NCBI RefSeq assembly: GCF_032062105.1
Contig: NW_026926606.1
Location: 62,001 to 126,000 of the forward strand
DNA from: Saccostrea cucullata
Taxonomy: Eukaryota
DNA: 64,000 nt
Direction of reading: 5' to 3'
Position 1 is the stretch's first letter. Each line of letters begins with the position of its first letter. Shown piece after piece: positions 17,401 through 52,400 of the stretch. The position numbers and the translations under genes were made by a program. Under the pieces are notes generated by a model. The model was given only the letters and a program-made list of their open reading frames with translations, had not been told where the DNA came from and did not search any database.

Positions 17401-19349
17401 AACATTTCTTAACTAAATCAGAGACTTATCTACTCATGCATCAGAATTTACCTTCTAACAAGGAGTATGATGTGTTTATATTGTGAATTTGTTCATCGTA
17501 AAAAGGGTTTAAATTTTTTATAAATAAAAAAAAAACTAGATCTGTCCAATCAGGACAAAATACCCCCCGCTGGGTTTTTCAGAAGTAAGTTTTTGCATAA
17601 TAAAGATATGTATCAAACACGAATTATAAAATTTTTCTTCCAGTGACCTTGAACTTCCCCAAATGACCTTGGGTCAAGGTCATGATACACCCTTGGGTCA
17701 TAGGCAATCTTTGAGTGAAATAAGAATCTACCAAGTTTATCAATAAGAAAGATATAGACCGGACACGAATTATGAAATTTTTCTTCCAGTGACCTTGAAC
17801 TTCCCCAAATGACCTTGGTTCAAGGTCATGACACACCCTTGGGTCATGGGCAATCTTTTTGTGAATTGAGAACCTACCAAGTTTATCCATAAAAGATATG
17901 TGTCAAACATGAATTTTGAAATTTTTCTCCCAGTGACTGACCTTGAACTTCCCCAAATGACCTTGGGTCAAGGTCATGACACACCCTTGGGTCATGGGCA
18001 ATCTTTGTGTGAAATGAGAACCTACCAAGTTTATCCATAAGAAAGATATGGACCGGACACGAATTATGAAATTTTTCTTCCAGTGACCTTGAACTTCCCC
18101 AAATGACCTTGGGTCAAGGTCATGACACACCCTTGGGTCATGGGCAATCTTTGTGTGAAATGAGTACCTACCAAGTTTATCCATAAAAGATATGTATCAA
18201 ACATGAATTTTGAAATTTTTCTCCCAGTGACCTTGAACTTCCCCAAATGACCTTGGGTCAAGGTCATGACACACCCTTGGGTCATGGGCAATCTTTGTGT
18301 GAAATGAGAACCTACCAAGTTTATCCATAAGAAAGATATGGACCGGACACGAATTATGAAATTTTTCTTCCAGTGACCTTGAACTTCCCCAAATGACCTT
18401 GGGTCAAGGTCATGACACACCCTTAGGTTATGAGCAATCTTAGTGTGGAGTAGTAGATTCTAATGTCCCTCTGTAAGAAAGATATGGACCGGACACGATT
18501 GCACAGACAGACGGACAGACAGACAGACAGCTAGACAGACAGACGGACAGACAGACAGACGGACAAGCTGATTCCTATATACCCCCCAAACTTCGTTTGC
18601 GGGGGGTATAAAAATCTTGATAAAGTATTCCTGATTTATTTTTATGGTTTCAATATCTGAATGCCTGTCAAAAATCCTGAATATTAAAAGTAACCATAGT
18701 CAAAAAAAAAAAGTATGCTAATTAAAGTGCAACAGAGTATGAATTGGCAATGTGTAGTGACAGTGCACAGTGATGCCATGTTCCTGCTAGCACTTATTAG
18801 TGTATAAACTCATTAGCTCAGTCAGAAGAGCATCACATTTTACATATCAGGTTAAACATGCTAAAGGTTGAAATTTTAATCCATATTACGGAAGTCCCCA
18901 AGGTAAAATCCACATTAAGGGTTTGTTGTTTATAAAGTCTCAGATGTGAGATTTCTTCGGGGATATAAAAAAAGAACTTGTGAATGAGAAATAAGAAAGT
19001 GTCACATGGTTTAATGCAGTATGTGTGTTGTGTGCAGTGAAGCTGTATGCTCCTTCTATATCACTAACAAATGGGTACAATCCCTAAGTTAAGTCCGCAA
19101 AGCTAGAGTTTGACTTCAACTCTAACAGTTGTAGATTTAAACCATGTTTTACTCACTTGTAATTGTAACCATTCATAAAAGTTTTAATGCAGCATGCTTA
19201 CCCAAGTAACTCTGATAGACTACAGAGTCTTCTTGCATTTTTAACATTTCTTTTTTGGCTTGTGGTGATGTGCTGGCAAATATGGGTACTTCTGGTGGCC
19301 TTAGGAAGGGGTCACTACAGATGCACCGCTGACAGCTGAAGTTCTCCAT
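2617..19349 (-). CDS. Uncharacterised single-pass (probably type III) transmembrane adaptor/receptor-like protein; spliced gene with two alternative terminal exons
   Basis: Phase-consistent GT-AG exons on the minus strand: 19349-19202 (MENFSCQRCICSDPFLRPPEVP...YQSYL, phase 1); 14954-14826 (Ser/Thr-rich ASTTAQTTIVPGVTT...NITSLQNDT); 11331-11223 (TM WWIALLVIGIILLALIVVGVYVY followed by KKKGKK, phase 2); 10230-10156 (FRKSVMYQNL..., 75 nt); then either 9469-8782 or 3250-2617, both entering in phase 2 and ending in a stop. Probable non-coding exon 1 ends at 20149 (GTAAGG). Confidence 0.72.
3682..3893. mobile_element. Non-autonomous TIR element (MITE) with TA flanks
   Basis: TACTGTAAATCAC ... GTGATCTACAGTA termini. 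Confidence 0.65.
5119..6385. mobile_element. Non-autonomous Helentron/Helitron-N with internal ~166-bp Cg170-like satellite array
   Basis: AACAAGAGGCCC start, subterminal GCTCACCTGAGC, about 6 monomers (GAACAAACTTGAATCT spaced ~166 bp), (GACA)n microsatellite, terminal hairpin GCTCACTTGAGCCTTCGGCTCAGGTGAGCT, inserted in an A-run. Confidence 0.88.
6801..8439. mobile_element. Non-autonomous Helentron/Helitron-N with ~8 satellite monomers
   Basis: Same termini and ~166-bp monomer family as 5119-6385; (ACA/ACG)n microsatellite. Confidence 0.88.
8782..9469 (-). CDS. Terminal exon A of the TM adaptor-like gene (acidic Ser-rich cytoplasmic tail with Tyr motifs)
   Basis: TTTTAG acceptor; phase-2 entry is in frame with ORF 8782..9486; motifs EEYSNP, DLYENS, SVYITL. 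Confidence 0.75.
10789..11120. mobile_element. MITE with ~35-bp imperfect TIRs
   Basis: AAGAGTTATTTCCCGTTGGTTGCCATATTGGAGGT ... ACCTCCAATATGGCAACTAATGGGAAAAAACTCTT. Confidence 0.6.
11223..11331 (-). CDS. Transmembrane exon of the TM adaptor-like gene
   Basis: CACAG acceptor and GTATGT donor; encodes a 23-residue hydrophobic helix followed by a polybasic stop-transfer sequence. Confidence 0.8.
11996..12157. repeat. Near-perfect ~160-bp palindrome (fold-back, Crypton-like non-autonomous element)
   Basis: Arms AAACAATAAAATG...ACATAACCCGC / GCGGGTTATGT...CATTTTATTGTTT around a tiny TTAC loop. Confidence 0.75.
12330..12480. mobile_element. Short MITE
   Basis: TAGGCCATATTTAAAAGAATGTTTG ... CAAACAATTTTTTAAAGATGGCCTTA inverted termini. 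Confidence 0.5.
12850..13467. mobile_element. Long-TIR fold-back DNA element inserted in a Helentron remnant
   Basis: TACTATCATTCCAATAACAGCGTGTCACTTT ... AAAGTGACACGCTGTTATTGGAATGATAGTA; inverted arms about 180 bp; TGACCTT-type Helentron sequence on both sides (12755-12849, 13468-13600). Confidence 0.75.
17534..18610. mobile_element. Non-autonomous Helentron of a second family with ~146-bp satellite monomers
   Basis: AACTAGA start, 6 monomers containing the TGACCTTGGGTCAAGGTCA palindrome, (GACA/GACG)n, terminal hairpin ATACCCCCCAAACTTCGTTTGCGGGGGGTAT. Confidence 0.85.
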
Positions 19350-20891: not shown

Positions 20892-22481
20892 GCTTTGACC
20901 ATTCTGTTCTTTACATGATTTCTCCCTTGTTATACATAATGCATCCCCACCCTACCCCACTGATCATAATTTAGACAATTTGAAATCTACACTACCCCAG
21001 GATCCTTCCATGGGTACATATGTTTCAGCTTTTTTGGCCCAGTGGTTCTTGAGAAGAAGATTTTGAAAGATTTTTCCTATATATTTCTATATAAAACTTT
21101 GATTCCCTATAATGGCCCCGCCCTTCCCCCGGGGGTCATGATTCCTACAATTTAGAATTTACACTACCCCAGAATGCTTCCACATAAGCTTCACTTTTTC
21201 TGGCCCAGTGGTTCTTGAGAAGATTTTCAAAGAATTTTCCTATATATTTCTATATGAAACTTTAATTCCCCATTGTGGCCCCGCCCTTCCCCCCGGGGGT
21301 CATTATTTGAACAATTTAGAATGTACATTATACCAGGATGCTTCCACATAAGTTTCAGCTTTTCTGGCCCAGTGGTTCTTGAGAAGAAGATTTTCAAAGA
21401 TTTTTCCTATATATTTCTATGTAAAACTTTGATACCCCATTGTGGCCCCGCCCTTCCCCCGGGGGTCATGATTTGAACAATTTAGAATCTACAATACACC
21501 AGGATGATTCCACTTTAAGTTTCAGCTTTTCTGACCCAGTGGTTCTTGAGAAGAAGATTTTCAAAGATTTTTCCTATATACATATGTATATCTATATAAA
21601 ACTTTGATTCCCCATTGTGGCCCCACCCTTCCCCCGGGGGTCATTATTTGAACAATTTAGAATCTGCACTATACCAGGATGCTTCCACATAAGTTTAAGC
21701 TTTTCTGACCCAGTGGTTCTTGAGAAGATTTTCAAAGATTTTTCCTATATATTTCTATATAAAACTTTGATACCCCATTGTGGCCCCGCCCTTCCCCCGG
21801 GGGTCATGATTTGAACAATTTAGAATCTACACTACACCAGGATGCTTCCACTTTAAGTTTCAGCTTTTCTGACCCAGTGGTTCTTGAGAAGAAGATTTTC
21901 AAAGATTTTTCCTACATACATATGTATATCTATATAAAACTTTGATTCCCCATTGTGGCCCCATCCTTCCCCCGGGGGTCATTATTTGAACAATTTAGAA
22001 TCTGCACTATACCAGGATGCTTCCACATAAGTTTAAGCTTTTCTGACCCAGTGGTTCTTGAGAAGATTTTCAAAGATTTTTCCTATATATTTCTATATAA
22101 ATTTAAACTTTGATTCCCCATTGTGGCCCTTCCCTTCCCCCGGGGGTCATGATTTGAACAATTTAGAATCTACACTATATCAGGATGCTTCCACATATGT
22201 TTCAGCTTTTCTGACCCAGTGGTTCTTGAGAAGAAGATTTTCAAAGATTTTTCAAAAGATTTTTCCTATATATTTCTATATAAAACTTTGATTCCCCATT
22301 GTGGTCCTGCCCTTCCCCCGGGGGTCATGATTTGAACAATTTAGAATCTACACTACCCCAGGATGCTTCCACATAAGTTTCAGCTTTACTGGCCCAGTGG
22401 TTTTTGCGAGGGGATATGTCCCTTCATTTTAACAATTTAAATTTCCCTTCACCCAAGGATGCTTTGTACCAAGTTTGGTCA

Positions 22482-24716: not shown

Positions 24717-25789
24717 ATACAGAGTATACAATTTCATTTCAAAGAATATTGTACTTACTCTAGTTTTTTCATGTAAAGGTTAATCTCTTTGATCACCATT
24801 AAAATGTAGTCAAAATTGATGGTTACAGTGTACCATAACAAAACATAAGAATTAAGGCCTAAGGCATTTTTAAGCCTTTAGAAATTTACAGGTCCAGACA
24901 GATGCAGGGATAAACAGGAAACTGACATTGGATTTATACAAAAATGAATCCCGTCATATGGCAGGCCGAAACAAAGAGTGGATTTCAAGGGTAGTTGCTG
25001 AGAAAATGAAAAAAAAAATTGTTACATACAGAAAGTCATACAGCTACACACAGACAAACACACAAGGGTAAAACAGTATACCCCTACTCTTGTTTAGAAC
25101 GGGGTATAATAATAAATAGAAGTGTTCATAAAAACACGTACATGTCAGTGAAATCTACATGTAGGGATGGATGATTTTCTTAACCGAAGGTATTCATAAC
25201 ACACAGAAATTCAGTGTAAGACCCTACTTTGCTCATCAAAATACTATTATACATTTTATGGCCACATACTGTCTCATATACACTAAATACCAGTATATAC
25301 AGATGTATAGGTATGTACAATTCGTGTGAAAAATTAATAAAATGAAGACAGAAGATTTCTTTGTGTTAAAAAAAATCTCTTACCAAAGTGTCCTAATAAA
25401 ATGTAAAATTTCTGCCATAATAAAATCGTGCGGAGGAGGAAAACTTTGTCTTCATAAAAAGATCTGATGATTGTGAGTAAAACCTAACTCACGATTTCTC
25501 ATCCTCAACATTTCCTGTTTCTAGTTCATCAAAATATCTGACAAGACACTCGATATCTGACACTTAAAATCCACAGATTTAAAAACTCACTTAATACATT
25601 TCTCAAAAAAGGAAGTAATACACACTTAAATTCCTAAATATTTACCACTTAGTGAATCATAGTAAAACTGACTATATCATTGGTTTTCTTCATTGTCTAA
25701 TAACTACATGCAATTAAATTTTACATATACAAATTACATTCATTTTTTTTGTCAATCTTCTCTTTCAAAAATACACATTTAAAAAAATT

Positions 25790-26110
25790 GTCTCAAAATC
25801 CATAAATTTTGCCAGTGTACATGAAAATGATGTTCCAAAGTCATGACAACTGACAAATTTGATCCTTGTAATTTTTTTGGCGGTGAAGATGAAAATGACA
25901 TGTTCCAATAACAATGTCATAACTTTTAAAAATTTGATTTTTCTAATTTTTGATTGTGTACGAGAAAAAGACACGCTCCAATAATGTCATAAGAATTGAC
26001 AAATTTTGCCTGTGTACATGAAAATGACGTGTTCATAATAATGTCATAACAACTGACAACTTTGATCTTAGTCAGCTTGTGTCCCTGTCTCGTAATGACT
26101 TCCGACAAAT
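25790..26110. repeat. Degenerate ~45-65-bp tandem repeats in the MIS18BP1 3'UTR
   Basis: Recurrent TGTACATGAAAATGA and AATGTCATAACAACTGACAAATTT blocks just downstream of the stop codon. Confidence 0.6.
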
Positions 26111-26148
26111 TCCATCGTTCTTTGCTGCTCCTGTTTGTCAGATCTTTG

Positions 26149-29100
26149 TCAGTTTTCTTCTTCCTCGGAGAAATAATAATCGGACTCCTCCTCCGAGTTG
26201 TCATGGTTACTGTCAGACCCACAATCCTCCATGAACAAACTCTGCAGATCGTCACTTTTACTGAAGAGTTTTTTGTTTGGTACGGGAACTTTATCCTTGG
26301 CCTGTGACAATGTAATAAACGTAAAAGAAGACGTTCACTTTTTAATCACAGAATTTTTTTGAACAAGTATTCAAGACTTTCATTTGATAGCTTAAGAAAT
26401 AAGAGGCACAAGAGCCACAATGCTCACCTGAGTAAGTTAACACTTTTATCTGTGTACAAAGATCATGACTTGAACTAAATACAGACACTTGTTTAATTGT
26501 TTTGTTATTTATAGTCTTTTCAAGAAAATACAACACAACTGTTTTTTCAGTACCTGAACTCTTAAGAGGAAACTTTGATACACAAACTGAAAGCACTAGA
26601 TCTCTACTTTATATTGAAGTTTACAGTGGGACATATAGTGTGTTAGTGAATGAATATCTTTATCTATAGGGCCATTTTAAGAATAAAGTGAACCTAGCTC
26701 TTTCAATCAGAAAGGTCACTTTACTTCTTTGGCTTTGGAGAGAAAGACTCAGGAGATCAATATTTAATTAATGATACATTACATAACCTACCGAATTTTT
26801 GGCTGTTTTGGGCTTGGTTTTGTTCACCAGTTTACGGCGCTGGATGTTCATCTTGTGCATGTACTGATCAGCTTCTTTTCTGAAAAATTCATTACTTTTA
26901 AAATACAGATAGTGTACATATATTAACATGTCTCGGTATCTATCATTTTCTCTGTCTGAGATCAATACCACTTGCCATGAGTCCTTATAACCCTAAATCA
27001 ACCTACACTGAAGTCCACAATTGTTAAATATATTTTAACATCAATATCTCAAATCCTTGAGTTTCTTGAAATTTTTCTTGACTTCAATGTCTCGGGATGA
27101 GTGACTTCTGACTTGTTGATCTGTCAGTGTCTCAGAATGGAGAATAACTGACCTGTTAATCTGTGAGTCTATGCCAGCCAGGCCTGAGGAGGGGGTTTTC
27201 TTTGTGGAGATGGGGTCCATGTTTATTCGAGTCATCGGGGTGAAGACCTTGTTCATCATATGGGGGTTCCTCTTACTGAGCTCAGTGAAGACGTCATCTT
27301 CATCAGAGAGGCGGGGCATCTAGAAAAACAAGAGAGAGGGGTTAATTTATATGATTTATATCATTTTATTTGGTGAAATAGTATTTCTTCATGTACAGAG
27401 AAGATTAAAGGTCATGGATTTGTTGAGATATTTTGTTGGAATACCTTTTTCTCACTTAACCAATTTTATTAACCTTCTCCTGGTGCCCATATGGTGTGTT
27501 GTCTACCTTTGAGAGGTGCCAATATGGAGTTTTGTTAAGATTCAAGTGATACTGATATTGTGTTATTTATCTTAAAGTGGTGCTGATAAGGTGTGGTACC
27601 AGTATGGCATGCTATTTACCTTTGAGTGGTGCCCATATAGTGTGTTGTCTACCTTTGAGAGGTGCCGGTATGATGTGTTATTAACCTTTGAGTGGTGCTG
27701 GTATGGCGTGTAGTTTACCTTTGAAGGGTGCTGGTATGGTGTGTTATTTACCTTTGAGTGGTGCCGGTATGGTGTGTTGTCTACATTTAAGTGGTGCTGG
27801 TATGGTGTGTTGTTTACCTTTGAGTGGTACCGGTTTGGTGTGTTATTTACCTTTGAGTGGTGCCAGTATGGTGTGTATATAACCTTTGAATGGTGCCAGT
27901 ATGGGGTTTGTTTACCTATGAGTGGTGCTGGTATGGCACGTTATTAATCTTTGAGTGGTGCCGCTATGGTGTGTTGTTTACCTTTAAGTGGTGCTGATAT
28001 GGTGTGTTGTTTACCTTTGAGTGGTGCCAGTGTGATGTGTGGTTTACCTTTGAGCAGTTCCAATATGGTGTGTTGTTTACCTTTGAGTGGTGTTGATATG
28101 TTGTAGTTTACCGTTGAGTGGTGCTGGTATGGCTTGGTTAACATGTGAGTGGTGCCGGTTTGGTGTGTGGTTAAACCATTGAGTGGTGCTGGTATGGCAT
28201 GGTTTACCTTTGAGTGGTGCCAGTATGTTGTGGTTTACTGTTAAGTGGTGCTGGTATGGCGTGGTTTACCTTTGAGGGGTGCCGATATGGTATGTGGTTT
28301 ACCATTGAGTGGTGCCAGTGTGGTATGGTATTTACCTTTTGAGTGGTGTGATTATGGCGTGTGTTTACCTTTCAGTAGTGCAGGTATGGCGTGTTTATTT
28401 ACCTTTGAGTGGTGCCGGTATAGCTTTTAATTTACCTTTGAGTGGTGTCGGTGTGGCGTTTGGTTTACCTTTGAGTGGTGTCGATGTGGTGTGTGGTTTA
28501 CCTTTGAGTGGGTGTCAGTATGGCATGCGGTTTACCTTTGAGTGGTGCCAATATGGTGTGTGGTTTACCTTTGAGTGGTGCCAGTATGGTGTGTTGTTAA
28601 CCTTTGAGTGGTGCCAGTATGGCGTGTGGTTTACCTTTGAGTGGTGCTGGTATGGCGTGTTATGTACCTTTGAGTGGTGCCGGTTTTGTATCATTCACCT
28701 ATGAGTGGTGTCGGTATGGTGTGGGGTTTACCTTTGAGTGGTGCCTGTATGGTGTGGTTTACTTTTGAGTGGTGCCGGTATAGCCTGTTGTTTACCTTTG
28801 AGTGGTGCTGGTATGGTTTGTTATTAACCTTTGAGTGGTCCTGGTATTGCGTGTGGTTTACCTTTGAGTGGTGCCGGTATGGTGTCCCATCAAACAGATC
28901 CTCCTGGTACACTTTATTGGACTGATCCACCAGTTCTCTCAGCTGCTGTTTCCTCTTCAGAGTTCCTCTCTTTGCTGTTAGACTGACCTGTTGTTCTGCT
29001 GTCTCTGTATTAAAGTAAACATTTATCTTACATATGTCCTTGATAATACATGCTGAAAAAGTTAAGCTAAATTGTATCGACAATGCTTTATATGACCAAA

Positions 29101-32100
29101 CACTTCCACTCTTAATTACTTATAATTCCAATCTTAATTTTATTTATTGATTCCTGTGTTTTGATTGGACAAACAAATTCAAGAAAAAGTTTACACATTG
29201 ATGAATTTTTCAATCAGAACTACTTTCTTGACCGAGCTTCTAGGCTGTTGTAAAAACAATGAAAACAGATACTTCTTGTCCGTTTTAGCTAAATTGTGAT
29301 TACAAGAAACTTGAAATAAGAAAAAGCAAAACAGGAGATAAACAGGACTGACAGACGGGAATATTAGTTTATGTCACTGTTGGATCTCAAGAGTGAATTT
29401 TAAAAAATCGCTGATCATGCTGTCATTTTCTCAACATTCAATATCAGCTCAGCTGGTATCGTTGTGATAGGGAAAAGAAACGTACCTCAGACTCTTGCCT
29501 TATCAGCATTTAAAATTCATATATTTACATCCTCAAATCCCATATTCTCCCTAAATCTTTGAACGAACCAGAGCAAATCAAGGACGTCGTCGGTCTGCAA
29601 CTTTCGCTATGAGTATGGTTGTTAATGTCAACATGACCATGGTTAAGGACAAATTTGTTCTGGAGAATACGCGTTTTTATGATATTTGTTGACTTAAACA
29701 ACATTCAATGAGTTTTTCTAAGTTTATTTATTGATTGTTTTGACAATTTAAGTTGGATTTTTTCGATATTCATTTTGTATACGTTTCTTTGCGGCATAAA
29801 GTATTCCTTCGCCGTACAAAATAACGGATTTTCTGGCGGCCTCAAAGATAAATAATTAAAAAATTTGAAATTGGAATTATAAGAATAAAACAATCTTTTT
29901 TCAGAATTTATCGATGTGTAAACTCTGCCTTTTTACTCACAAACTTAACATAAAAGTGCTTTGCACTTTTATTCAGTTTGTGAGTAAAAAGGCAGAGATT
30001 ATACATCGATAAATTCTGAAAAAAAGAACGTTTAATCCTAAAAATCACTTGGTCTATGCTTGAAAGTTCTATAGTTTACCCCCCCCCCCTTTGTTTATGA
30101 AAACTTTACCGATATATTCTAAATACACCTATGTAAATGTATGTATAAGCAAGAGGAACTGAACATAGATGAAGATTGCTTGATTTCTGCTCCTTTTTGG
30201 CTTCTGTGAATGCTGTTATGGACCCTTAGACCTTTTTAACTAACCTTTTGGTTTGGGGGGTCTGCCCCGTTTGCCTGTCTTTTTACTGGGCATCTCTTTG
30301 TAGAAATATTCCTGACATTCCTCTAGGGTTTTAGTCTTTACATGGTTCACAACCTTGCTCCAGAATTGCGGGTCACACTGGTGTAATTGCTTTGTTATTC
30401 TACACAAAAAAACATTATCTACAGCAATGGGGCAATTTTCAAGAGCATTTCAATTTTTCAATTTCAGCAAAAAACTCTTTAATTAGCATTAAAGTTTTTT
30501 TAAAAAAATAAATTAAGTATTCACACACTGCTTCCTTTTAACAAACTGCTGTTAAAAACTTAATGTATTACACTTCTCACCAAAGGGAGGGAATCCTGGA
30601 TCACTTACAGATTAAGTCTGGTGACCTCGTCCTTCCTCCACACCGATTCTTCCTTGTTCTTTTCCTCCAGCTGATTTTCTTTTCCTTCTTTTTTTGTCGC
30701 CCTGGGTTTTGATACAGACCTTTCCAGTTTATTTTGGTCACTCCTCCTCATTTTTTCCTCCTGTTTGTTATTTTGTGATTCCTCCCTCCCTTTCTCTTTA
30801 TTTAGGTCACTCCTCCTCTTTTTTTTCTCCTGTATATTATTTTTTGACTCCTCACTCCCTTTCCCTTTATTAAGGTCACTTTTCCTCACTTTTTCCTCCT
30901 GTTTATTGTTTTGCAACTCCTTTTCCTTCCCTTTTTCTTTGGATCCTTTTTTCTGTTTCCCATCCTTTATACTTTCAGCTTGTTTCTGAGATTTTGACTT
31001 GGAAGTTGCTCCGTTCTTGGACTGATTTGTCTTACCATTGGATTCACTATCAGAACTACCAGACCTCCTGTGGTTGGTTTTATTGGATTTGCTGCCAACC
31101 TTTTTTTCACTACCATTTTTATCAGAAGTTTTGTTCTTAACATGTTCCCTCGAAGTTTTAGAAATACTACTAGAATTTAATGACACATTTTTTCTGAAAT
31201 AGGTTGATCTTGACTGAAAACAAAAAGGTATTTGAGCAATTCATTATTAAATGCTTTTGATAAGAAAAAACAAAAAAGGAAAAAACATATATGCATGAAA
31301 CACTGATGTCCCCATATGGCATAGGCCTGGTCAAAACTATAATTGTGTGAATATAGATGAAAATTTGACAATTAGATTATATACAGCAGAATTAAACAGT
31401 ATCTGTGTTTTGAAGTTTCTGACCTTGTAGAAGTCTGTCATGTCCTTAGAAACACTCTCAGCAAACTGTGTCCTGTGTCGGAGGATGTAGGAGTTGGTCT
31501 CGGGGTCAACAGTGACTGACTGACCAGCGTACCAGCCCACCACAGGTTTGACAGCTCGTCCACTTCTGGTCGTCTGTACGGAGTCTAGCTTAATCACCTT
31601 ACCATCAGGTGTACACACTGTAACGCAGAGGTCAAATATCAAACACAGAGGTCAAAACAAGGTCAAATCACATTACTGTCAGGTGTACACACTGTAACAC
31701 AGAGGTTAAATATCAAACACAGAGGTCAAAACAAGGTCAAATCACTTTACCGTCAGGTGTACACACTGTAACACAAAGGTCAAAACAATGTCATATCACT
31801 TTACCGTCAGGCGCACACATTGTAACACAGAGGTCAGATCAAGGTCAAATCACCTTACCGTCAGGAGTACACACTGTAACACAGAAGTCAAAACAAGGTC
31901 AAATAACCGTACTGTCAGTAGTACACACTGTAACACAGAGGTCAAATCACCTTACTGTCAGGTGTACACACTGTAACATTGGGAAAAAAAATCTGCATTG
32001 GACAAATTTTACTGCACAGTCTGCACCTTCTACTAATTAGTGTACATATTACACATAATCTATGCCATTTATAAACAATACACACCCTCTGTGACTTTTC

Positions 32101-35100: not shown

Positions 35101-38100
35101 TATACGCGTGCGATAAATATCATCGAGTTCCGCGACAATTAATTTTCGTGATAGAGGAAACATTATTTACAAATACTTAGCAAAATAATTTGTTCTAGAA
35201 GCAGTTGAAGTTTTATTACAAACATTCAGAAAAAATATATAAACGAATGGAAAATCTAAAAATATTTGTCTAAAACGATTAAAATGTCAATAAATATTTC
35301 AGCTTATGTTATTATTAATCATTTATTGTCACAGACAGATAAAATTTAATTATGGCCTAGTCCTGCTCCGTCCCAACCATTTATAATAATTGCCCTTTGG
35401 CTATGTAGGTCTTGTAAAGCATCAATTACCCAATTAGCACGAGGTACTTTTACACTTGAAAGTTTTAAACCAACTTAAATCTCTTCGATTTTTTAAAACA
35501 ATTTTCATTCGAGCGTCGTGAATAATGCGTATATAAGAAGTATACTCATGGTAACATTTTACCTTCTTTAGGTGCGGATATAAGATTTTAAATAGATGTA
35601 ATCCACAGAATGTCTTAAATAATACATAAGCAGTACTCACGGTAGCATTTTACCTAGTTTATGAGCGGATATGAAATTTTGATGCAAAATATAAAATACT
35701 TGTGGAAATAAAAAAAAGATGACCACTTGTTTGCAGAAATAAATCGTCGCGGATTAGTTCTCCAGCGGTCAGTCGCGAATAAAAAATGACGCATATAATA
35801 ATTGGTTTACAGTAAATAAAAATGAAATGTAAAATTGATACCATTTTGTGATAGGTTAACTTTAGACTTTGACGATCCTCTGAAATATAAAGAAGAAATT
35901 TATTATATGTGTCTTTAAAATGCAAATTTTGAGTTTCAGTGGCTAAAACTTTTAAAAGAGCATCAAGGCTTTATTGAAAAGATATGTTTCATGAAATTCA
36001 AAGATATCAATTAAATGCATGTATTTCAAACCAAACATTTCATCATATGAAGAACGGTGGAGTCATTGATTTTCCTAAGTCCAAGGGGGCATAACTCTAT
36101 CCAAATTGACTTGATCATACCCAAAACAAAACTTGGCCTAGATATTCTCATGATAAATCTGTACACCAAATTTCATTTCAACATTGCAACCTCCATTCTT
36201 TGAAGAAGGGGGGGAAAATTAGATAATTACCCAGAGAAGAACATGTCCATCACCTCTCTCCAGTGAACAGGGAAACCAGACAGAAATTCTCTTATTGTTT
36301 GATCATCAAATCCTACAATGAAACACAACCAAATCATTCAAACCCTACAATACAACACAATCAAATCATTGTTTTGAATTTCACTGTAAGATTTAAAATT
36401 AGAGTGGATTGGTAAATATTACACTGGATGGGTAAATGTTACAGTAGATGCCTAGATGGGTAATTACATACAATTTTGACCTAAATCTGACCTCCTGAGT
36501 GAGCGTCCTCGATTTCCATGTCTCCCATTAAGCGATACACCTTGCCGCTGACAGTAATGACCAGGTGAGATTCGAGCCTGTCCGATATCAGACTGGAATG
36601 CCAGTACGTGTCATCATCCTCTCTACAATCAACCAATAGGAAAACATTAAAACAGATTATAATTACAATAAACAAATGTAAGGTTGCCAGATATTCTATG
36701 ATAACACTAAATTCCATTTCACCATGGTCACTGGTATTCGTAAAAATATATATTTTTGATAAACAGAAAAAGTTCAGATAATTTTTGCTGATCAATAAGA
36801 GATAACCATATGAAACAATAAAATTAGCACTAAAAAAAGCCTGTAAATGTAGTACCCTCGATATCTTGAATCCTTGGATAACTCAATGTTTTTATTATTT
36901 TTTTCGATCCTATTAAGTTCAATATAATGAGGTTTGACTGTATATCCATGTAAATCTAAATACTTGGGACTAGAATAATATAAACAAATTTATCTGACTC
37001 AGGTATAGAAAATTTTCTAGAGAGGTACATGCAGTGACATACTTAAGCTTTCCTTCAACACAGGGACCTGAGTTATCCGGTAAAACTTTGATGATCCAAG
37101 AGTAAAGAGTCTGGGCTTCTGGGATAGAAGTCACCTGAAAAAGGGACTAAATCATCAGCAATGGAAAATATAAAGGTAATAACAGGTATACAGAAAAAAT
37201 TTTACTCTCCTCAGATAGGTAACTTCACAGTGAAAATGGTATTTAACTTAAAACATGATAAGCTCCGGCCTGTATAATAAGAGTTTTATGAATATCTTAC
37301 CTCACTCCCACAATTCCCTTTTAGACTACCTGAAACACAGATTACATAATAAGTGTATACACTTTAAATCGATAATTTATGATGGAGCTCATTTAAAAAT
37401 TAAAACTGAAACCATGCTAATTATCTTACTAGACTGTTCCTCCTCAGATCAATATCACAATTCAATCACCCTTTTTCTTATAAAATGGACACAAACCCTT
37501 AACAATCAGATTTAAAATTTTCATCTAAAAATCAATTTATAAGATTCTTCCTACACTTACTATTCTCTTTTTCATTGTTGCGCAAAGGATAGATATTTGA
37601 CGCCTCGGAAAAACTCTCGTTCTCATCCGACGTGGACATTACTTTATCATCCATGTTCTCGTGAATAACCCGCATCACCCCGGCCACTGGCTGCTGATGA
37701 GGGAGGGGGCTGTGAAAACCATTTCTAGGAACGTTGTTCTGTGGAAACCGGTTACAGCAAAAGCTGTCCTGACATAGATCCACACTACATGACTTTGTAC
37801 GCAGCTCATGTTGCTGGAAATTTCTCCATCCTCCATGGGAACTGAAGGAGTCTCTTAGATTTGTCTGATTTTGATAGCCGTGTTCTGATTGGTTGTGAAT
37901 CAGTATCGGCCTACACGATTGGCTCTGCAGCCTGTGTGTCTCTGTCGGGGGCCTCTGAAGGTGACATTGGGGTACAACTGATCTAACGGAGTGGTCACGG
38001 TTGCCATAGTAGCTGTAGGCGGGGGTACTGGTCAAAAAGGAACGTTGTTCTGGGTGAGGAAGATAAAACTCTGACTCTGTTGCATGAGATAGGGACAAAT

Positions 38101-40226: not shown

Positions 40227-43200
40227 ATGGCTAGAAACATCTTAAGTCAAGCAATATCTTACCTTGAAAAACACTTGTTTTTAAATACTTTGAAGAGGAA
40301 ACGCGAACTCACTGCACAAAGATGTTACACAAAACAGACCGAAAATATCATGAATGTATTTGACAGAAAAGCCAAACGGCTACAAAGAGATAGGTCTACA
40401 ATGATGCCAAATTTTGAGGATTCTCAGTTCTTAAAAGAAGAGGTTGGAATTATTTTGATGCCATATTTATTCACCAGACCGAATAATTCATTGAATCTAG
40501 ATTATAGCTCTATATATTTTAGAAGTTTCAGTAACATTGTTTATCAAATAAAACTTGAAGAATTGAACCACAGATGTGATTGACATTATGCTTGGTATGC
40601 ATATTTGTTTAGCCATTCCAGACCACATGCAGGGACTTGAGACAGTCTTAGCAAAATTGGGTAGTATATAGACTCTAGACTATATAGCCTCTACCCAACT
40701 TTTGCTAAAACTGTCTTAAGTCCCTGTGGCCAAGACTTGAAGAGATTCCCTCTTTACTAATTTGAAAGTCACAATGTAAAATCAATTTTATCTATTTTTT
40801 TTTTCGGTGTGACGCATCGATTTACCAAAATGAACCCAAATGGAAGTTAAAAGAACCCAAATGGACCCAAACTTTGGAAACTCAAATGTTTTTGACCCAA
40901 ATGGAAATCAAATGGAATATTAAATATGTATTATCGTATTTTGATACTTATCTAAATGATGAAAATAAATGAACTTACAGTTACAAATGGATTTTTTTAG
41001 CTTAAAAATCTGTAATATTGTATTTTGAAACATGAAGTTTTCATAGTATCCAATAAACCGGCAAAATTATTTGGGGGTAGGGGCAGGGGGTGGCATGGCC
41101 TCCACACCCCCCCCCCCTCCGTTCCTACGGCCATAAAAATATCAAATACATCAGTTTTGTATCAAGTATGTTCAAAAATAGTTACTGCAAATAGAATTAA
41201 ATCGCATTTTTGCAAATACAACTGAAGAAATAATGATGTTATAATATTCTCTATTTGTTATAATTTCATTATTCTCTATATTTTAGATAAGTAAAAACTT
41301 GAAATACGATATAGTATATATATTTTATATTCCATTTGGGTCCATTTGATTTCCATTTGGGTCCATTTGAGTTTCCATTTGGGTCCATTTGGGTTCCATT
41401 TGTGTCCATTTCGGTAAATCGACGCACCCTTAATTTTTGATTGTTCAGTGTGACATGCAATCATGCATGGACTCATTTGATTTTGCTGATTAGCAATTGA
41501 TAAATGCAAAGCTAACATTAAAATCAGAACAATCACCTGATAAAACTTTTTACATGTAGTTTTTCACAAAAATGTTTTTGTAGGAAATAGAGAAGTCTCA
41601 AGTATTTGACTATTCATATAGCTTTCAGTTTTCATTATTTGTACTTTTTTCACATGCTAAAAAATAACTCATTTGAGAAAAGTATGTAATAAAATAACTA
41701 AATCAAGCTATTCTGGCCCCAAGACCAGAAGACCATAAACTGAGAACAGACTTAAGTCAGAATTTAAAATCAACAGAAGTTTTGAAACAATTTTGATAGT
41801 GAAACAAAATTTTCCACATACCTATGAAATAGTATATTACACAAACCTGCAACATTTTATGAAGATATGTTACAAAGAATTGAATATTTTGTTTATGGTC
41901 TTGGGGCCTGAATAGCTTAATAAAGCGATATGTACACTGTACACAATAAAGCTGAACCACGCTATACAGCTTAAAATCAAGAGATTGTGCCAAACCTGTA
42001 GAAATGTTTATGAGTAACTAGTTACTTTTACATGTTTTAGAAACTGTGTAATAATATTTTGTCTTTCATCATTCAGATTGGGTACAGAACATATGATAGA
42101 CTTTTAGACATAAAAAGGTAAAAAACACATTATTAATCTCCTAGCTGTTAAAAGAACTTAAAGGCAAGAAAAAAAACCCAGCCAAATAAATTAAGACATT
42201 AAAAAAGACAAAAAGTGCCCCCAAAAGTTAAATAGATAACAATAAATACCTGTTATGATTTTTCTTCTTTGAATTGTAGAGAATTTGACATAGGAGTGGA
42301 TCTAGGTTCTGGACTTGGATATGTTTCCCGTCATGTTTTAAAAGATACCGTCAAATTTCTATATCAGTGTGAACTCTCAGAAAAATTACTGGTAACTTAA
42401 ATGCATATTATCTAATGCATACTCAATTGAAATGATTCACCTAATGAAGGAAACCATGCATTTTTTCCCATAATTATTTTTTATATACCGGGTAATCCAT
42501 TTGCAACTTATTTTGTATCTTAAAAACGAGAAATTCTTTTTCTATGTTAGTCACAATCAAGCACAGTTTATTAAATTTTATTTAGAGACAAGCACAGGTT
42601 TCACCAGAAGTTCCTACTCAAAAACTGATAGTTGATGAAGAATTTCTCCCATTTAAAGAGAATTCTTTGGATGTAATTGTGAGCAGTTTAAGGTGAGTAC
42701 TGATCGAAGTGTGGCCAGAAGTTGATAAGAGACAGTTATTTCTGTCAAGCTATAGCAAGGAAGAATATTCTCATCCTCATATGTAAAGTATCAGAATTTC
42801 TCTTTTCTGTGTTAAACCTTGCACTAAAAAAAAAAATATTCCACATGAAAAACAGTAAGTGGTCTTTATTTTTCTGTATTTGTAAGATGTTATTTTGTCT
42901 GCTGACAGCTTACACTGGGTCAATGATTTACCAGGGTGTTTCAAGGCTGTAAGTATTAAGTGTTTATGTACTAGTATGTGTATGAATAAAGTTCATTTTT
43001 GATTGATTATTAAATGAACATGTATCTTTAAACAATTTTTTTGAATTCCTTGGACAGAAAATGTACAAAAATTAATTATTGCAATATAAAACTTTTAAAG
43101 ACCAATGGAAGTTGATAATCTGCAAACTGAGATTAATATAGTGAGCAATACTACAGTAATCATGGTAATGAAATAGGCTTTTTTGTGCTTGACCATGTCC

Positions 43201-45050
43201 AGAAATGTCTAGAAAATGTTAACCATTACTGTCTCTTTGAACAGGCTCAGAAGGCTTTAAAACCGGACTGTCCATTTATTGGGAGTATGTTTGGTGGTGA
43301 CACGCTGTTTGAACTCAGGGTTTCTCTGCAGTTAGCAGAACAGGAAATACAGGGGGTAGGTACCAGGATAAACTGGTTCTCAACAATAAGGCAGTACACA
43401 GAACTCAATACTTTCATAAATTCAAAAAAAGAAAATGGTGAAGCATGAATGAAACTTAATTTTAATTCATACAAAGTCCATAGCATTATCCAAGCTCATT
43501 GAAAAATGAATGCAATTAAAGAAGACAAATCACTCCTGTACTTGTTTGATTGACAGGGGATTAGTCCACACATTTCACCTTTCACTGATGTCCGTGATCT
43601 AGGTAACCTATTAAACAGAGCAGGATTCACCATGTTAACTATTGTAAGTGTGCCAAATAAATCAAAGTACTGATAGTACTGAAGGGTAAAGTGAGAAGTT
43701 ATACAAATACTAAAAGATAGATCTAAAGCAGTATTCAGTTTGTTCACAAAAGGAGCATGCTTTAAAATTAAACAAGTGGCAATTGTATAAAACATAGCAT
43801 ATTTTCATGAATTAGGTTTTCTTGCTTTCATGTATCATACTTATAAAGAAGTGGTCAAACAAATACATGTATGTTATTATGAGTTCTAAGTTTTCCCTTT
43901 CATTTTCACAGGATATTGATGAAATAAAAACAACTTATGAGAACATGTTGTCCTTAATGCTGGATTTGAAAGGTATCAGAATCATGATCCAATAAATACT
44001 TCTGCTAAATTTATCTTAGTTATCAGTGGAATGCCTTTGGTAACATTAAAGTAATGATTTTATTTTAATATCAGGCATGGCAGAAAATAACTGTGTCTGG
44101 GAAAGGAGGCCCATGCTTTATCGTAAAACAATAGAATTAGCTGAGAAAAAATACAGAGGTAAAATTCTCGTTGTAAAAGCTCATCTTTTAGAATAGAAAC
44201 ATTGAGTAAAAATCTTGATTATGATAAGGTTTTCAAGTACATGTAATCCAGACTTTCTTTAAAAGAAATTTTTTAATCTTGTGAGAGTATATTAGTTAAT
44301 TATTAAAAAATTGTGTAAACACACCACAATTTCTCCCTCACACAATCTCTCTATCTCTGTCTCTTTATCTCTGATTTTTTTTTGTGACTGACTCCAATTA
44401 CATGTATATGGTAATTTTGTTGTAGAAATGTACAGCTCAGAGGAGGGACTGGAGGCTACCTTTCAGATTGTAAATTTCATTGGTTGGTCCCCGCATCCTT
44501 CTCAGGTATTTATATGATATTCCTTTATATTTCTAGTTATACAAAGTATCAGGTTGGGTCAGTTCCAGTCTTAGTTACACACAATTAAAACTATATTAAA
44601 ATCTATCAGAGAACACAATTTATCCTGAGTCTAACAGAGATCATCTTATAATACAGGCTCAGGCACTTATTGAGCCCAATGGAGCCAGACTTTTTTCCCC
44701 GCAATATTTTGAACTATTTGATGTGAAATGTAGTCATAATTCTCTGATAAAGAAATATTTAACAGGTTTTTAAAGTTTCAAACAGTAATTTTTGTAAAAT
44801 TTTTTGCCCACATGTTTTTAAGCTTTATTTATATATTTTCTACTCACATTTCTCCAGAATGTAGATCTGTTGCTGCACATGGTTCACAAAGCTAATTTCT
44901 TGTTTCGCCATTTTTCAGCCCAAACCATTACAAAGGGGATCAGCCCAGTTTTCTCTGAAGGATATTGATAAAATTGATGAGTTAACCAAGGAAATGGAAT
45001 CACAAACAGAGGATCTGGATACAGAATTAAACCCAAAGAAAGACAAATAA
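40227..45050 (+). CDS. NDUFAF5: Arginine-hydroxylase NDUFAF5, mitochondrial complex I assembly factor (SAM-methyltransferase fold)
   Basis: 11 exons: 40227-40442, 42077-42117, 42280-42391, 42586-42692, 42909-42948, 43245-43355, 43557-43643, 43912-43972, 44075-44158, 44426-44505, 44919-45050. Basic N-terminal mitochondrial-type presequence, then [111 protein letters not shown]. Confidence 0.96.
40622..40730. repeat. Short fold-back palindrome in NDUFAF5 intron 1
   Basis: CAGGGACTTGAGACAGTCTTAGCAAAATTGGGTAG / CTACCCAACTTTTGCTAAAACTGTCTTAAGTCCCTG. Confidence 0.65.
40806..41429. mobile_element. TIR element with subterminal CCCAAATGGA repeats
   Basis: GCATCGATTTACCAAAATG ... CATTTCGGTAAATCGACGC; oppositely oriented ACCCAAATGGA arrays at the two ends. 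Confidence 0.7.
41708..41917. mobile_element. Short MITE
   Basis: GCTATTCTGGCCCCAAGACCA ... TGGTCTTGGGGCCTGAATAGC. Confidence 0.6.
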
Positions 45051-49400: not shown

Positions 49401-52400
49401 AAAAAATTAAATTTAAGTCGAAGTATAAAGTGAATATATAGAAAATGGAAAAAAAAATGTTTTTAAAGTTTCAACGATTTCATTTGAAGATTCAATAAAC
49501 ACAAAAGACAAAGATTTTATGGCATGTCAAATGTTACAACATTCGATATTTTCCATTTGTATTGAATGATTTTTATTTGTATTGTATGATTTTTATTTGT
49601 ATTGTATGATTTTTTTGTATTGTATAATTTTCCGTTTGATTTTTATTGTATAATTTTTTTGCATTTTATGATTTTTATTTGTATAATTTTATTTGTTTTG
49701 TATAACTTTTCACTGAATTGTATGATTTTTCATTTGTATTGTATTTTTTTTTTTTTGATTTCTATATTAACATTTGTTTTGTTTGCAATTTTTTATTTGT
49801 ATTTTAAAATAAGACTTTTTTTTTACAATACATAATTAAAAATTATAGAATACAAAAGTGTTTCAATCAAGTTTTAGAATTCTGAGAATCTAAAATTAAT
49901 TGTTATTGTTATTTTAAATTTCTGAATTCTCAAACTTTAATGTAACAAATGAAAAATTTTACAACACAAATGGAAAATTATAGAATAGAAATAAAAATTA
50001 TACACTATAAATTAAAAAGATGCCATATGATTATTATGATGTTGCCTTGTTTGTAAATTTGTTTTTGTTTTTAATTTTTAGCTTTATAAAGTAATTATAT
50101 TAATAATTTACATGTATTAATAATTTTTATTGATTGTAATAGATTCAGGAAATCAATGACTACTATTTCACACTCTTTAAACAATGTGGAAAACGAACAA
50201 CATATAGAATAGCAAGAGGAAACAAACTAAGGATCACTCTCTTCTCTAACCATGACAGATTTACAGATAAAGGTTTTCAGCTAAGTCTGAAAGGTAAATA
50301 TCTTTTTGCTGGTAATTAAAGAAAATGTTTAACTTTTTTCTTCAGAAATTTAATGGAAATTATTCAATATTATCTGAAGCAAACCATTTAACATTTAATG
50401 TATAACTTCAGGTCAAATTTAAATAAAAATTGAAACGTTTGAACACTTCACTCATGTATACATCATTCATAAGACCGCAATGAATACGCTTCAGTTTTGC
50501 TGTCAACAGGGTGATAGTGATAAGTTAGAAAAACTTCAACTTTATGCAGCTAGAATTGTAACAGGGTTAACAACTATAGCTTCCAAAGATTCACTTTATT
50601 TTGAAACTATGGGAAAGTTGTAGAAGACAAGAAGCTAGATTAAAAACAATGTTCAAACTTCATAATAATTTAGTGCCAGAATACTTAATGGACATCCTTC
50701 CAAATATGCGCTGTAACACATCTATCTACTCGACAAGAAATTCTCAAAATTATGATATTCCAAAGTGTCGATTACAAACTTATAAGTCTACGTTTATTCC
50801 CACTGTAGTTAACGAATGGAACTCCATTCCACTTGAAACTCGAAATTTACAGTCAATGTCGAAATTCAAATCTAAAATTAGTAATAAAAAATTATTGATT
50901 TACTTTGATTACGGTAACAGAAGACTAAATGTTCTTCAAACCAGACTACGACATAATTGTGTATTAAATAACGACCTTTATAGATGCAATTTAATATCAA
51001 GTCCCTTGTGCACGTGCGGTAAAGTTGAGGACACATATCATTATTTTTTCGTATGTCCAAAGTATGTGAACGCCAGGAATGAATTTTTACATAATTTTTT
51101 ACAATTTGATACAATCCACATACTAGATACACAGTTTTATTATGGGGGGGGGTTGAATCACTGAGTGCTGCAGAGAATGAACATCTCTTTTCTTTAGTTC
51201 AAACATTTATTAAGCATTCTGGTAGATTTCCTTGTTAATTACTTTACCAATATTGATATATGAATTTATTTAACTTTTTTATATTCATACATATATGCAA
51301 AATGCATCATTTTGTTTACTTATGCAAATTCTGAATACTTTTTATAGCATGTTTAACTGTGACAATATAAATGTGTAATTTACATGTATAGGGAGATTTG
51401 TAAACTTGTGCTCAATCCCTTTGTAATTATATTACAATAAAATATGTTCAAATCAAACGTTTGAAATATTCACAACGATAAGTTTTCAAAAATGATTTGA
51501 AATTTTGAAAACAAACCATGCATAAAAGATTGATAAATATATCAATTATCATACCTTTTAATAAGGTAGACTTTTCACTTTATAAACATGAATGACTGAT
51601 CTAGATGGACATTATTTGAATGAATTCTTCCTACAAATAAATTGTTTTAGCTATAGGCGCCTGAACACTCAGTAATGAAAAGTTTCCTTGAAGTAATAAT
51701 AAAGAGTCATTGAAGTGAATTACAATATACAGTTCCGTTGATCTAGCTTGGACGTATTTGAAATGGTATAAAACTAGTGATAAATACACATGTAAATAAT
51801 ATTTTATATTTCGGCATCCTGGTGAACATATATTCCAATGTTTGAGATAAGCACACATTGATGGCCTATTAACTTCTTGATCACATAGATATTTGACGGA
51901 TCAATCGTGTAATATTTCTATTCGAACATTTGTCTCAAATGTAATTATAATTAATAAAACCAAGATCAAATGTTCACTCGGGAATGAATTTGGTTGTAAC
52001 GTGTTCAAAACTACTAAGAAAGGGCATCACAGGATTTAATCACGTACATGTAACCAAGCAAGTTAATTCCCAGTGACCTTAGAACCTTTTCTTTGCTTGG
52101 CTGATTTAAACTTTAAACAAACATGGCTTTCATGTTCATTATGTTAATTCAATGTTGGCGTCTTTACAGTTCTACATGAAAATTAACTTTTGTTTATATA
52201 TAACGGAATAAAAATAAAAAGATGTTTAATTTAATAACAGTATCAAAGATATCAACAAGTTTGTCAAAGTCGACAATAGGTTCATCATCGATGTCAAAGA
52301 CATCAATGGCAAAGGAGAAAACAACGACAATGAAAACGGAAGATCCTCAAAGACCAAACATTGGAAATAAAGAAATAATTCTTTCAACAAGAACAGCACC

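Follow-up and report, generated by a model that had tools for sequence, protein, structure and literature searches.

A minisatellite of about 40 junction-spanning copies in intron 13 of an oyster MIS18BP1 gene, with splicing at the first copy in the RNA examined

Introduction

MIS18BP1 licenses centromeres. In the MIS18BP1 gene of the oyster Saccostrea cucullata, the boundary between one coding exon and the following intron is repeated head to tail within that intron, and most of the repeated units carry what resembles a 5' splice site. This arrangement raises the question of which of these sites is used, and of whether the others serve any role. An earlier note on this DNA, made from the letters alone, had suggested that the array may tune isoforms or NMD, and had related its AG|GT motifs to recursive splicing and to intron gain. 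In this study, we analysed a window of 64,000 nucleotides of contig NW_026926606.1, in which all positions given below are counted. We are rather confident that a 33-base piece of the junction was copied some 40 times into an intron that was likely already present, that the reads examined splice at copy 1, and that the remaining copies are likely neutral, decaying passengers.

Results

The host gene is MIS18BP1-like. The exon downstream of the array matches the MIS18-binding protein 1-like protein of S. cucullata with 100% identity over the matched part, and residues 2-911 of this protein map exactly onto 15 exon blocks in the window. Met1 belongs to an unmapped exon ahead of these blocks; with this one counted in, the junction exon is number 13 of the coding exons, which bears out the label used in the earlier note. 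This exon (28862..29004, minus strand, 143 nt) ends in GTPYRHHSK, corresponds exactly to amino acids 729-776 of protein P0001 and is delimited by RNA joints at 29004/30245 and 27319/28862. Intron 13 (27320..28861, minus strand) measures 1542 nt, according to an RNA joint that skips 1542 nt with CT..AC ends. Its 3' splice site (27320..27339, minus strand) consists of a polypyrimidine tract (94% pyrimidine) followed by TAG and is not derived from the array. Coding exon 14 (27153..27319, minus strand), supported by RNA joints and by the protein map, begins with MPRLS. In the protein, the junction falls at K776|M777, C-terminal to both the SANTA domain (202-287) and a sub-threshold Myb-like match (682-711) in Pfam.

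Several other elements lie in the same window. Exon 11 of MIS18BP1 contains a coding 69-bp repeat of about three copies (30719-30921, minus strand). Because the S. echinata and M. gigas proteins hold different repeats in the matching region, this low-complexity stretch appears to expand independently in each lineage. Head to head with MIS18BP1 lies an intact NDUFAF5 gene of 11 exons and 356 codons without stops (40227-45050, plus strand). The arrays at 5190-8183, 17587-18498 and 20964-22406 consist of ~166-bp and 146-bp units with short runs of ACAG type on their flanks, and presumably resemble the satellite-bearing mobile elements of oysters. By eye, an open frame at 50580-51164 (plus strand) resembles the end of a LINE-type reverse transcriptase remnant.

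Tandem Repeats Finder describes the array of intron 13 as a repeat of 33-bp period with 39.5 copies and 78% matches (27593-28885, score 1332). Segmentation resolves 39 well-formed units of 31-34 bp (27608..28885, minus strand, running from 28882 to 27608), followed by a degraded tail of three to four partial units (27463..27607, minus strand), part of which duplicates copies 38-39 (43/46 letters). Thus, the estimate of ~42 copies in the earlier note holds if the tail is counted, and otherwise gives way to 39 intact units. The array fills ~1400 nt, or ~90%, of the intron. Read on the minus strand, the unit comprises the last 21 exon bases (-21 to -1) and the first 12 intron bases (+1 to +12), in agreement with the earlier description; three more upstream exon bases also fit, giving a register of 21-24 exon nt plus 9-12 intron nt. 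Copy 1 is the real exon-intron boundary, as shown by RNA, with the donor AAG|GTAAAC (28856..28864, minus strand; GT at 28861-28860). Its donor 9-mer recurs at 17 of the 40 listed donor positions of the array. AG|GT is present at 32 of the 39 downstream donor positions and not, as had been claimed, in every unit. At the flanks of the unit, the exon (...GGGACA|CCATAC) and the intron (...CCACACG) have a short ACA match in common, which might plausibly have seeded slippage. No second haplotype of the locus was found in the assembly, where the junction exon is single-copy.

The array shows clear marks of decay. All 39 units are distinct, and pairwise identity stays flat at ~80% (0.78-0.85 for most spacings), with no sign of higher-order periodicity or of recent homogenisation. 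Moreover, 14 of the 39 units are 31, 32 or 34 bp long, so that a unit length divisible by 3, as previously described, is a property of the consensus and not of these copies. Given the frame-breaking units, the distinctness of every copy and the even identity at nearly all spacings, the array looks old and its homogenisation seems to be over. Compared with copy 1, 58 of 146 cells at CpG positions are changed, 50 of them by deamination-type substitutions (C-to-T or G-to-A), against 111 of 1092 elsewhere. Such an excess of CpG transitions is the pattern expected of drifting methylated DNA, and gene-body methylation occurs in oysters. The view that the most distal copies are the most decayed applies to the last three to four segments. 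Over copies 2-39, no gradient was detected (Spearman rho -0.24, p 0.14 for identity to copy 1; means by quarters of 87, 85, 83 and 86%), and significance is reached only when the degraded tail is included.

Donor use was assessed in RNA. Four of the 24 listed runs were mapped on 25500-31800 at >=90% likeness, with joints listed from three reads upwards. Three of them (X17, X18 and X19) are raw poly(A) runs from one study, read to ~45% and mostly 90-95% alike to the assembly. In these, the raw reads with a joint at 28862 number 1, 12 and 7, respectively, so that all 20 listed junction reads use copy 1. The fourth run, X1, provides one contig of depth 272 with a joint at 28862. Hence, copy 1 is the working donor, as the earlier note had anticipated. 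Rows listed as 27301/28862 represent the same exon 13-14 junction, read from an allele whose exon 14 is 6 bases longer near its start. At the threshold of three reads, the four runs list no joint from any other copy of the array. Depth was zero in the six bins over 27399-28664 in all three raw runs. In the bin 28665-28875, which includes 14 exon bases, the bases counted amount to 6.0, 26.1 and 8.0 times these 14, and coverage does not exceed that predicted from the depth at 28886. These figures place the use of downstream donors below 14% from junction reads (0/20) and below 7% from exon-end reads (0/~40), both as 95% bounds and for animals that could have a shorter array, one too diverged to pass the 90% cut, or none. 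A second X1 contig, of depth 6, joins the array places 27807 and 28629 with ends that lack splice signals, and may represent another allele with array-like units reordered, or a mapping effect.

The reads themselves carry two further observations. Although labelled as the same species, most of them show a likeness of 90-95% to the assembly (positions 27299 and 28886), and the label probably covers several lineages. Some reads have 6 additional nt, in frame, near the start of exon 14, and these correspond to the two residues that the S. echinata protein has in addition.

We then asked what downstream donors would produce. Copies 2, 3 and 4 (28762..28828, minus strand; GT at 28828, 28795 and 28762) would add 11, 22 and 33 residues, and they are the only downstream donors that are both in frame and stop-free. 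The three peptides given in the earlier note (YRHHSKVNHTQ, YQDHSKVNNKP and YQHHSKVNNRL) are correct. Beyond them, the frame is lost at copy 5, and the first stop of the exon 13 read-through frame follows at 28693, within copy 6 (28691..28693, minus strand). Pfam returned only sub-threshold matches for the repeat peptide.

In principle, copies 2-4 could serve as minor alternative donors, or later copies could feed NMD, tuning MIS18BP1 in the gonad, for example. Several observations are compatible with such tuning. Besides the open frame of copies 2-4, the donor 9-mer of copy 3 is identical to that of copy 1, and six donor positions beat copy 1 in their match to the consensus (7 vs 6 of 9). RNA structure does not hide the donors, since copies 1-9 fold more weakly than 99 of 100 shuffles (z +2.1). 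Nearby copies are used in the human 6-16 and CBS genes, as cited in PMC1557585. In addition, the donor GT is nearly invariant, with changes in 1 of 76 cells compared with 110 of 1016 for the remaining non-CpG positions (p 0.005), although array copies are not independent and one change or fewer is also seen in 8 of 27 other columns. On the other hand, the complete donor 9-mer changes about as often as the remaining non-CpG positions (36/340 vs 75/752, p 0.75), and the copies show no coding constraint, with 18/226, 16/227 and 21/266 changes at codon positions 1, 2 and 3. Products that stay in frame would not be removed by NMD and ought to show up, yet later copies account for none of the 20 junction reads and the array has no depth in the three raw runs; out-of-frame products could be hidden by NMD in poly(A) data.

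The annotated proteins point in the same direction. The three isoform accessions of S. cucullata correspond to a single 911-aa sequence. Of 20 stored oyster proteins, nine span the junction, each with GTPYRHHSK followed by [MI]PRLS and with one HHSK apiece; the other 11 are without the junction motif, and a second HHSK occurs in none of the 20. These gene models are partly built from RNA, and that of S. cucullata may derive from the same assembly, so they are not independent evidence. Altogether, we consider the tuning of isoforms or NMD improbable. The earlier note had named exclusive use of copy 1 as the outcome that would refute a functional role, and this is the outcome in the data examined, with the reservation that array length may differ in the animals that provided the RNA.

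The AG|GT of the units might also act as a recursive splice site, with the intron removed stepwise. The motif is frequent enough for this, as it stands at 32 of the 39 downstream positions. However, 30 of these 32 sites read AAG, whereas CAG or TAG stands at each of the gene's 15 real acceptors, and T content upstream of the array AGs is 0.16 (maximum 0.29) vs 0.55 (minimum 0.41) at the real acceptors. The YAG and pyrimidine tract that would have to precede GT in a functional site are therefore absent from the array. Moreover, mouse recursive sites lie in introns >51 kb (PMC8797253), in contrast to the 1542 nt of intron 13; this is a soft criterion, as recursive splicing in shorter introns is also reported in PMC10156609. 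Poly(A) RNA is of a kind that cannot show the intermediates. On the strength of the acceptor sequences, we regard recursive splicing, which the earlier note had raised, as very improbable.

A similarly small chance is left to the idea that intron 13 was itself born by tandem duplication of an exon piece carrying AGGT. The unit does contain AGGT and the array makes up most of the intron. In the mechanism described in PMC3443670, however, the duplicated AGGT serves as acceptor, while intron 13 ends at 27320 in an ordinary polypyrimidine-TAG acceptor of its own, ~140 nt past the array, and the start of exon 14 differs from the sequence that follows GT in the unit. This acceptor is apparently common to Magallana: the Magallana model P0006 resumes exactly at IPRLS after a gap of 23 residues, suggesting a shared exon start. 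In a distant animal contig, a possible phase-0 GT may stand two codons further on. The P0006 gap and this contig are weak hints that intron 13 could be old.

The contig comes from a search for outgroup DNA in metagenomes, which returned two loci among 450 candidate stretches, both with one distant animal sequence, 54% identical, and no oyster. This ortholog (L013:2605-2730, the same as L014) keeps the exon 13 motif LTAKRGTLKR...DLF..TPY at 54% identity, and no repeat was seen after the motif in L013.

Finally, genome-wide searches point to a local origin of the unit. All 15 matches of an exact 17-base core in the 1.17 Gb assembly, where such counts are lower bounds, fall inside this array, and a DNA search with the whole array returned this locus as its single match, in a search that may skip common words. 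The amplification thus appears to be local and seeded by the junction, as the earlier note had supposed. A dispersed satellite, or a piece of a transposon, that merely resembles the exon end has next to no credibility as the source of the unit: other satellite arrays do occur in oyster introns of the window, but the unit has no match elsewhere in 1.17 Gb within the sensitivity of that search, and its exon part encodes PYRHHSK, identical in Magallana.

The donor of exon 13 is not the only duplicated splice boundary in MIS18BP1. Exon 10, which starts at 31617, is preceded by a locus-unique acceptor array (31592..31978, minus strand) with six copies upstream of the exon and units of 43-74 bp. Five copies keep CAG, and the unit includes ~25 exon bases. 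In all four runs, depth is zero at 31619-31800, and the loose read ends at 31618 carry sequence of the exon upstream; RNA is spliced directly to the real exon. Hence, it enters exon 10 at the exon-adjacent acceptor copy, mirroring the donor array. A GTAAG-like donor ~15 nt after each AG of the exon 10 array would allow 15-nt microexons in principle. Two single duplications complete the set: one of the exon 6 acceptor (36302..36370, minus strand; 32-bp period, 33/38 letters alike), which lies outside the RNA-mapped region, and a decayed one of the exon 14 donor (27090..27169, minus strand; ~40 bp, 30/41 columns alike), where RNA uses the donor at 27152.

In total, four of the 29 boundaries of MIS18BP1 are duplicated (two donors and two acceptors), none of them towards the exon side. 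Against a background of 1.5-4.0% per direction, this corresponds to p 0.001-0.03, at a score cut of 24 that was chosen after seeing the matches. Without the boundary that had been flagged, the count is 3/28 (p 0.009-0.10). In the neighbouring NDUFAF5, none of the 20 boundaries is duplicated, and pooling both genes without the flagged boundary gives p 0.04-0.30. A bias of duplications towards exon edges is an unproven lead.

Discussion

The array of intron 13 is a junction-spanning minisatellite, a class already known from human F7 and from the mirages of amphioxus. It shares with this class a terminal unit that spans the boundary, donor copies arranged head to tail, a local origin and splicing at the authentic site. 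In the 37-bp VNTR of human F7 intron 7, splicing relies on the most upstream donor alone, and a mutation of this donor moves splicing to the following one (Borensztajn et al. 2006; PMC1557585). As in the oyster, the first F7 unit spans the exon-intron boundary and is followed by identical donors. The F7 array differs in having 5-9 copies, four exon bases per unit, a known length polymorphism and minigene tests behind it. In contrast, the oyster array has ~40 diverged copies and 21-24 exon bases per unit, and is known from one assembly haplotype.

The same source cites further human minisatellites that reiterate a junction and fill much of an intron, as in the oyster. In LMNB2 (100 bp x 10-15) and PDGF intron 4 (81 bp x 16-18), the authentic donor alone is used. 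In 6-16 (25 pseudo-sites) and CBS intron 13 (15-20 copies), the next one or two donors are also used, unlike in the oyster RNA reads examined, where no such use was seen.

In amphioxus, a cephalochordate, mirages have been described in Adh3, the globins BflGb6 and BflGb9, troponin C and PGBD5 (PMC3087553; PMC3902484), and these reports mention no disturbed splicing. The resemblance to the oyster gene extends to the setting, a marine invertebrate in which both donor and acceptor boundaries are duplicated, with more than one case per gene in PGBD5. The mirages show haplotype length differences and concerted evolution, according to the same reports, whereas no two units of the oyster array are identical and its flat identity makes it look older and no longer homogenised. 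The intron gain of PMC3443670 also involves tandem duplication of a piece with AGGT. There, a purely exonic piece gives both donor and acceptor, while the oyster piece extends into the intron and the acceptor lies apart from it. Our literature search, with subscription journals mostly outside its coverage, found no case of a junction-spanning minisatellite in oysters or in MIS18BP1.

Based on these comparisons, the following course of events can be proposed. The first duplication would have arisen by slippage or unequal exchange at the short ACA(C) match flanking the unit, and expansion would have followed. The exon would stay intact in this process because new copies land in the intron. Copy 1 would be chosen because it abuts the complete exon, either through exon definition or through oriented scanning, as in human F7. 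Both the donor and the acceptor array use the copy beside the whole exon, which seems to favour exon definition over a rule by which the first site wins. The decay itself, through CpG transitions and frame-breaking indels, is observed; germline methylation and the lack of selection on the extra donors would account for it.

A broader proposal is that, in oysters and other highly heterozygous marine invertebrates, tandem duplications are seeded by the edges of exons, and that the four duplicated boundaries of MIS18BP1 are a record of it. We consider this rather doubtful. One conceivable mechanism would be the stalling and re-priming of repair or conversion tracts between homologues at places where a conserved exon borders a diverged intron.

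With this array, a known class gains an example from a mollusc, and one of unusually high copy number. Our results also indicate that splice-site choice holds against 16 identical downstream donors. The finding would gain importance if some tissue made an altered centromere protein through copies 2-4, or if exon edges turned out to be hot spots of duplication. Should such an exon-edge bias be true, MIS18BP1 would offer a natural two-way test of exon definition.
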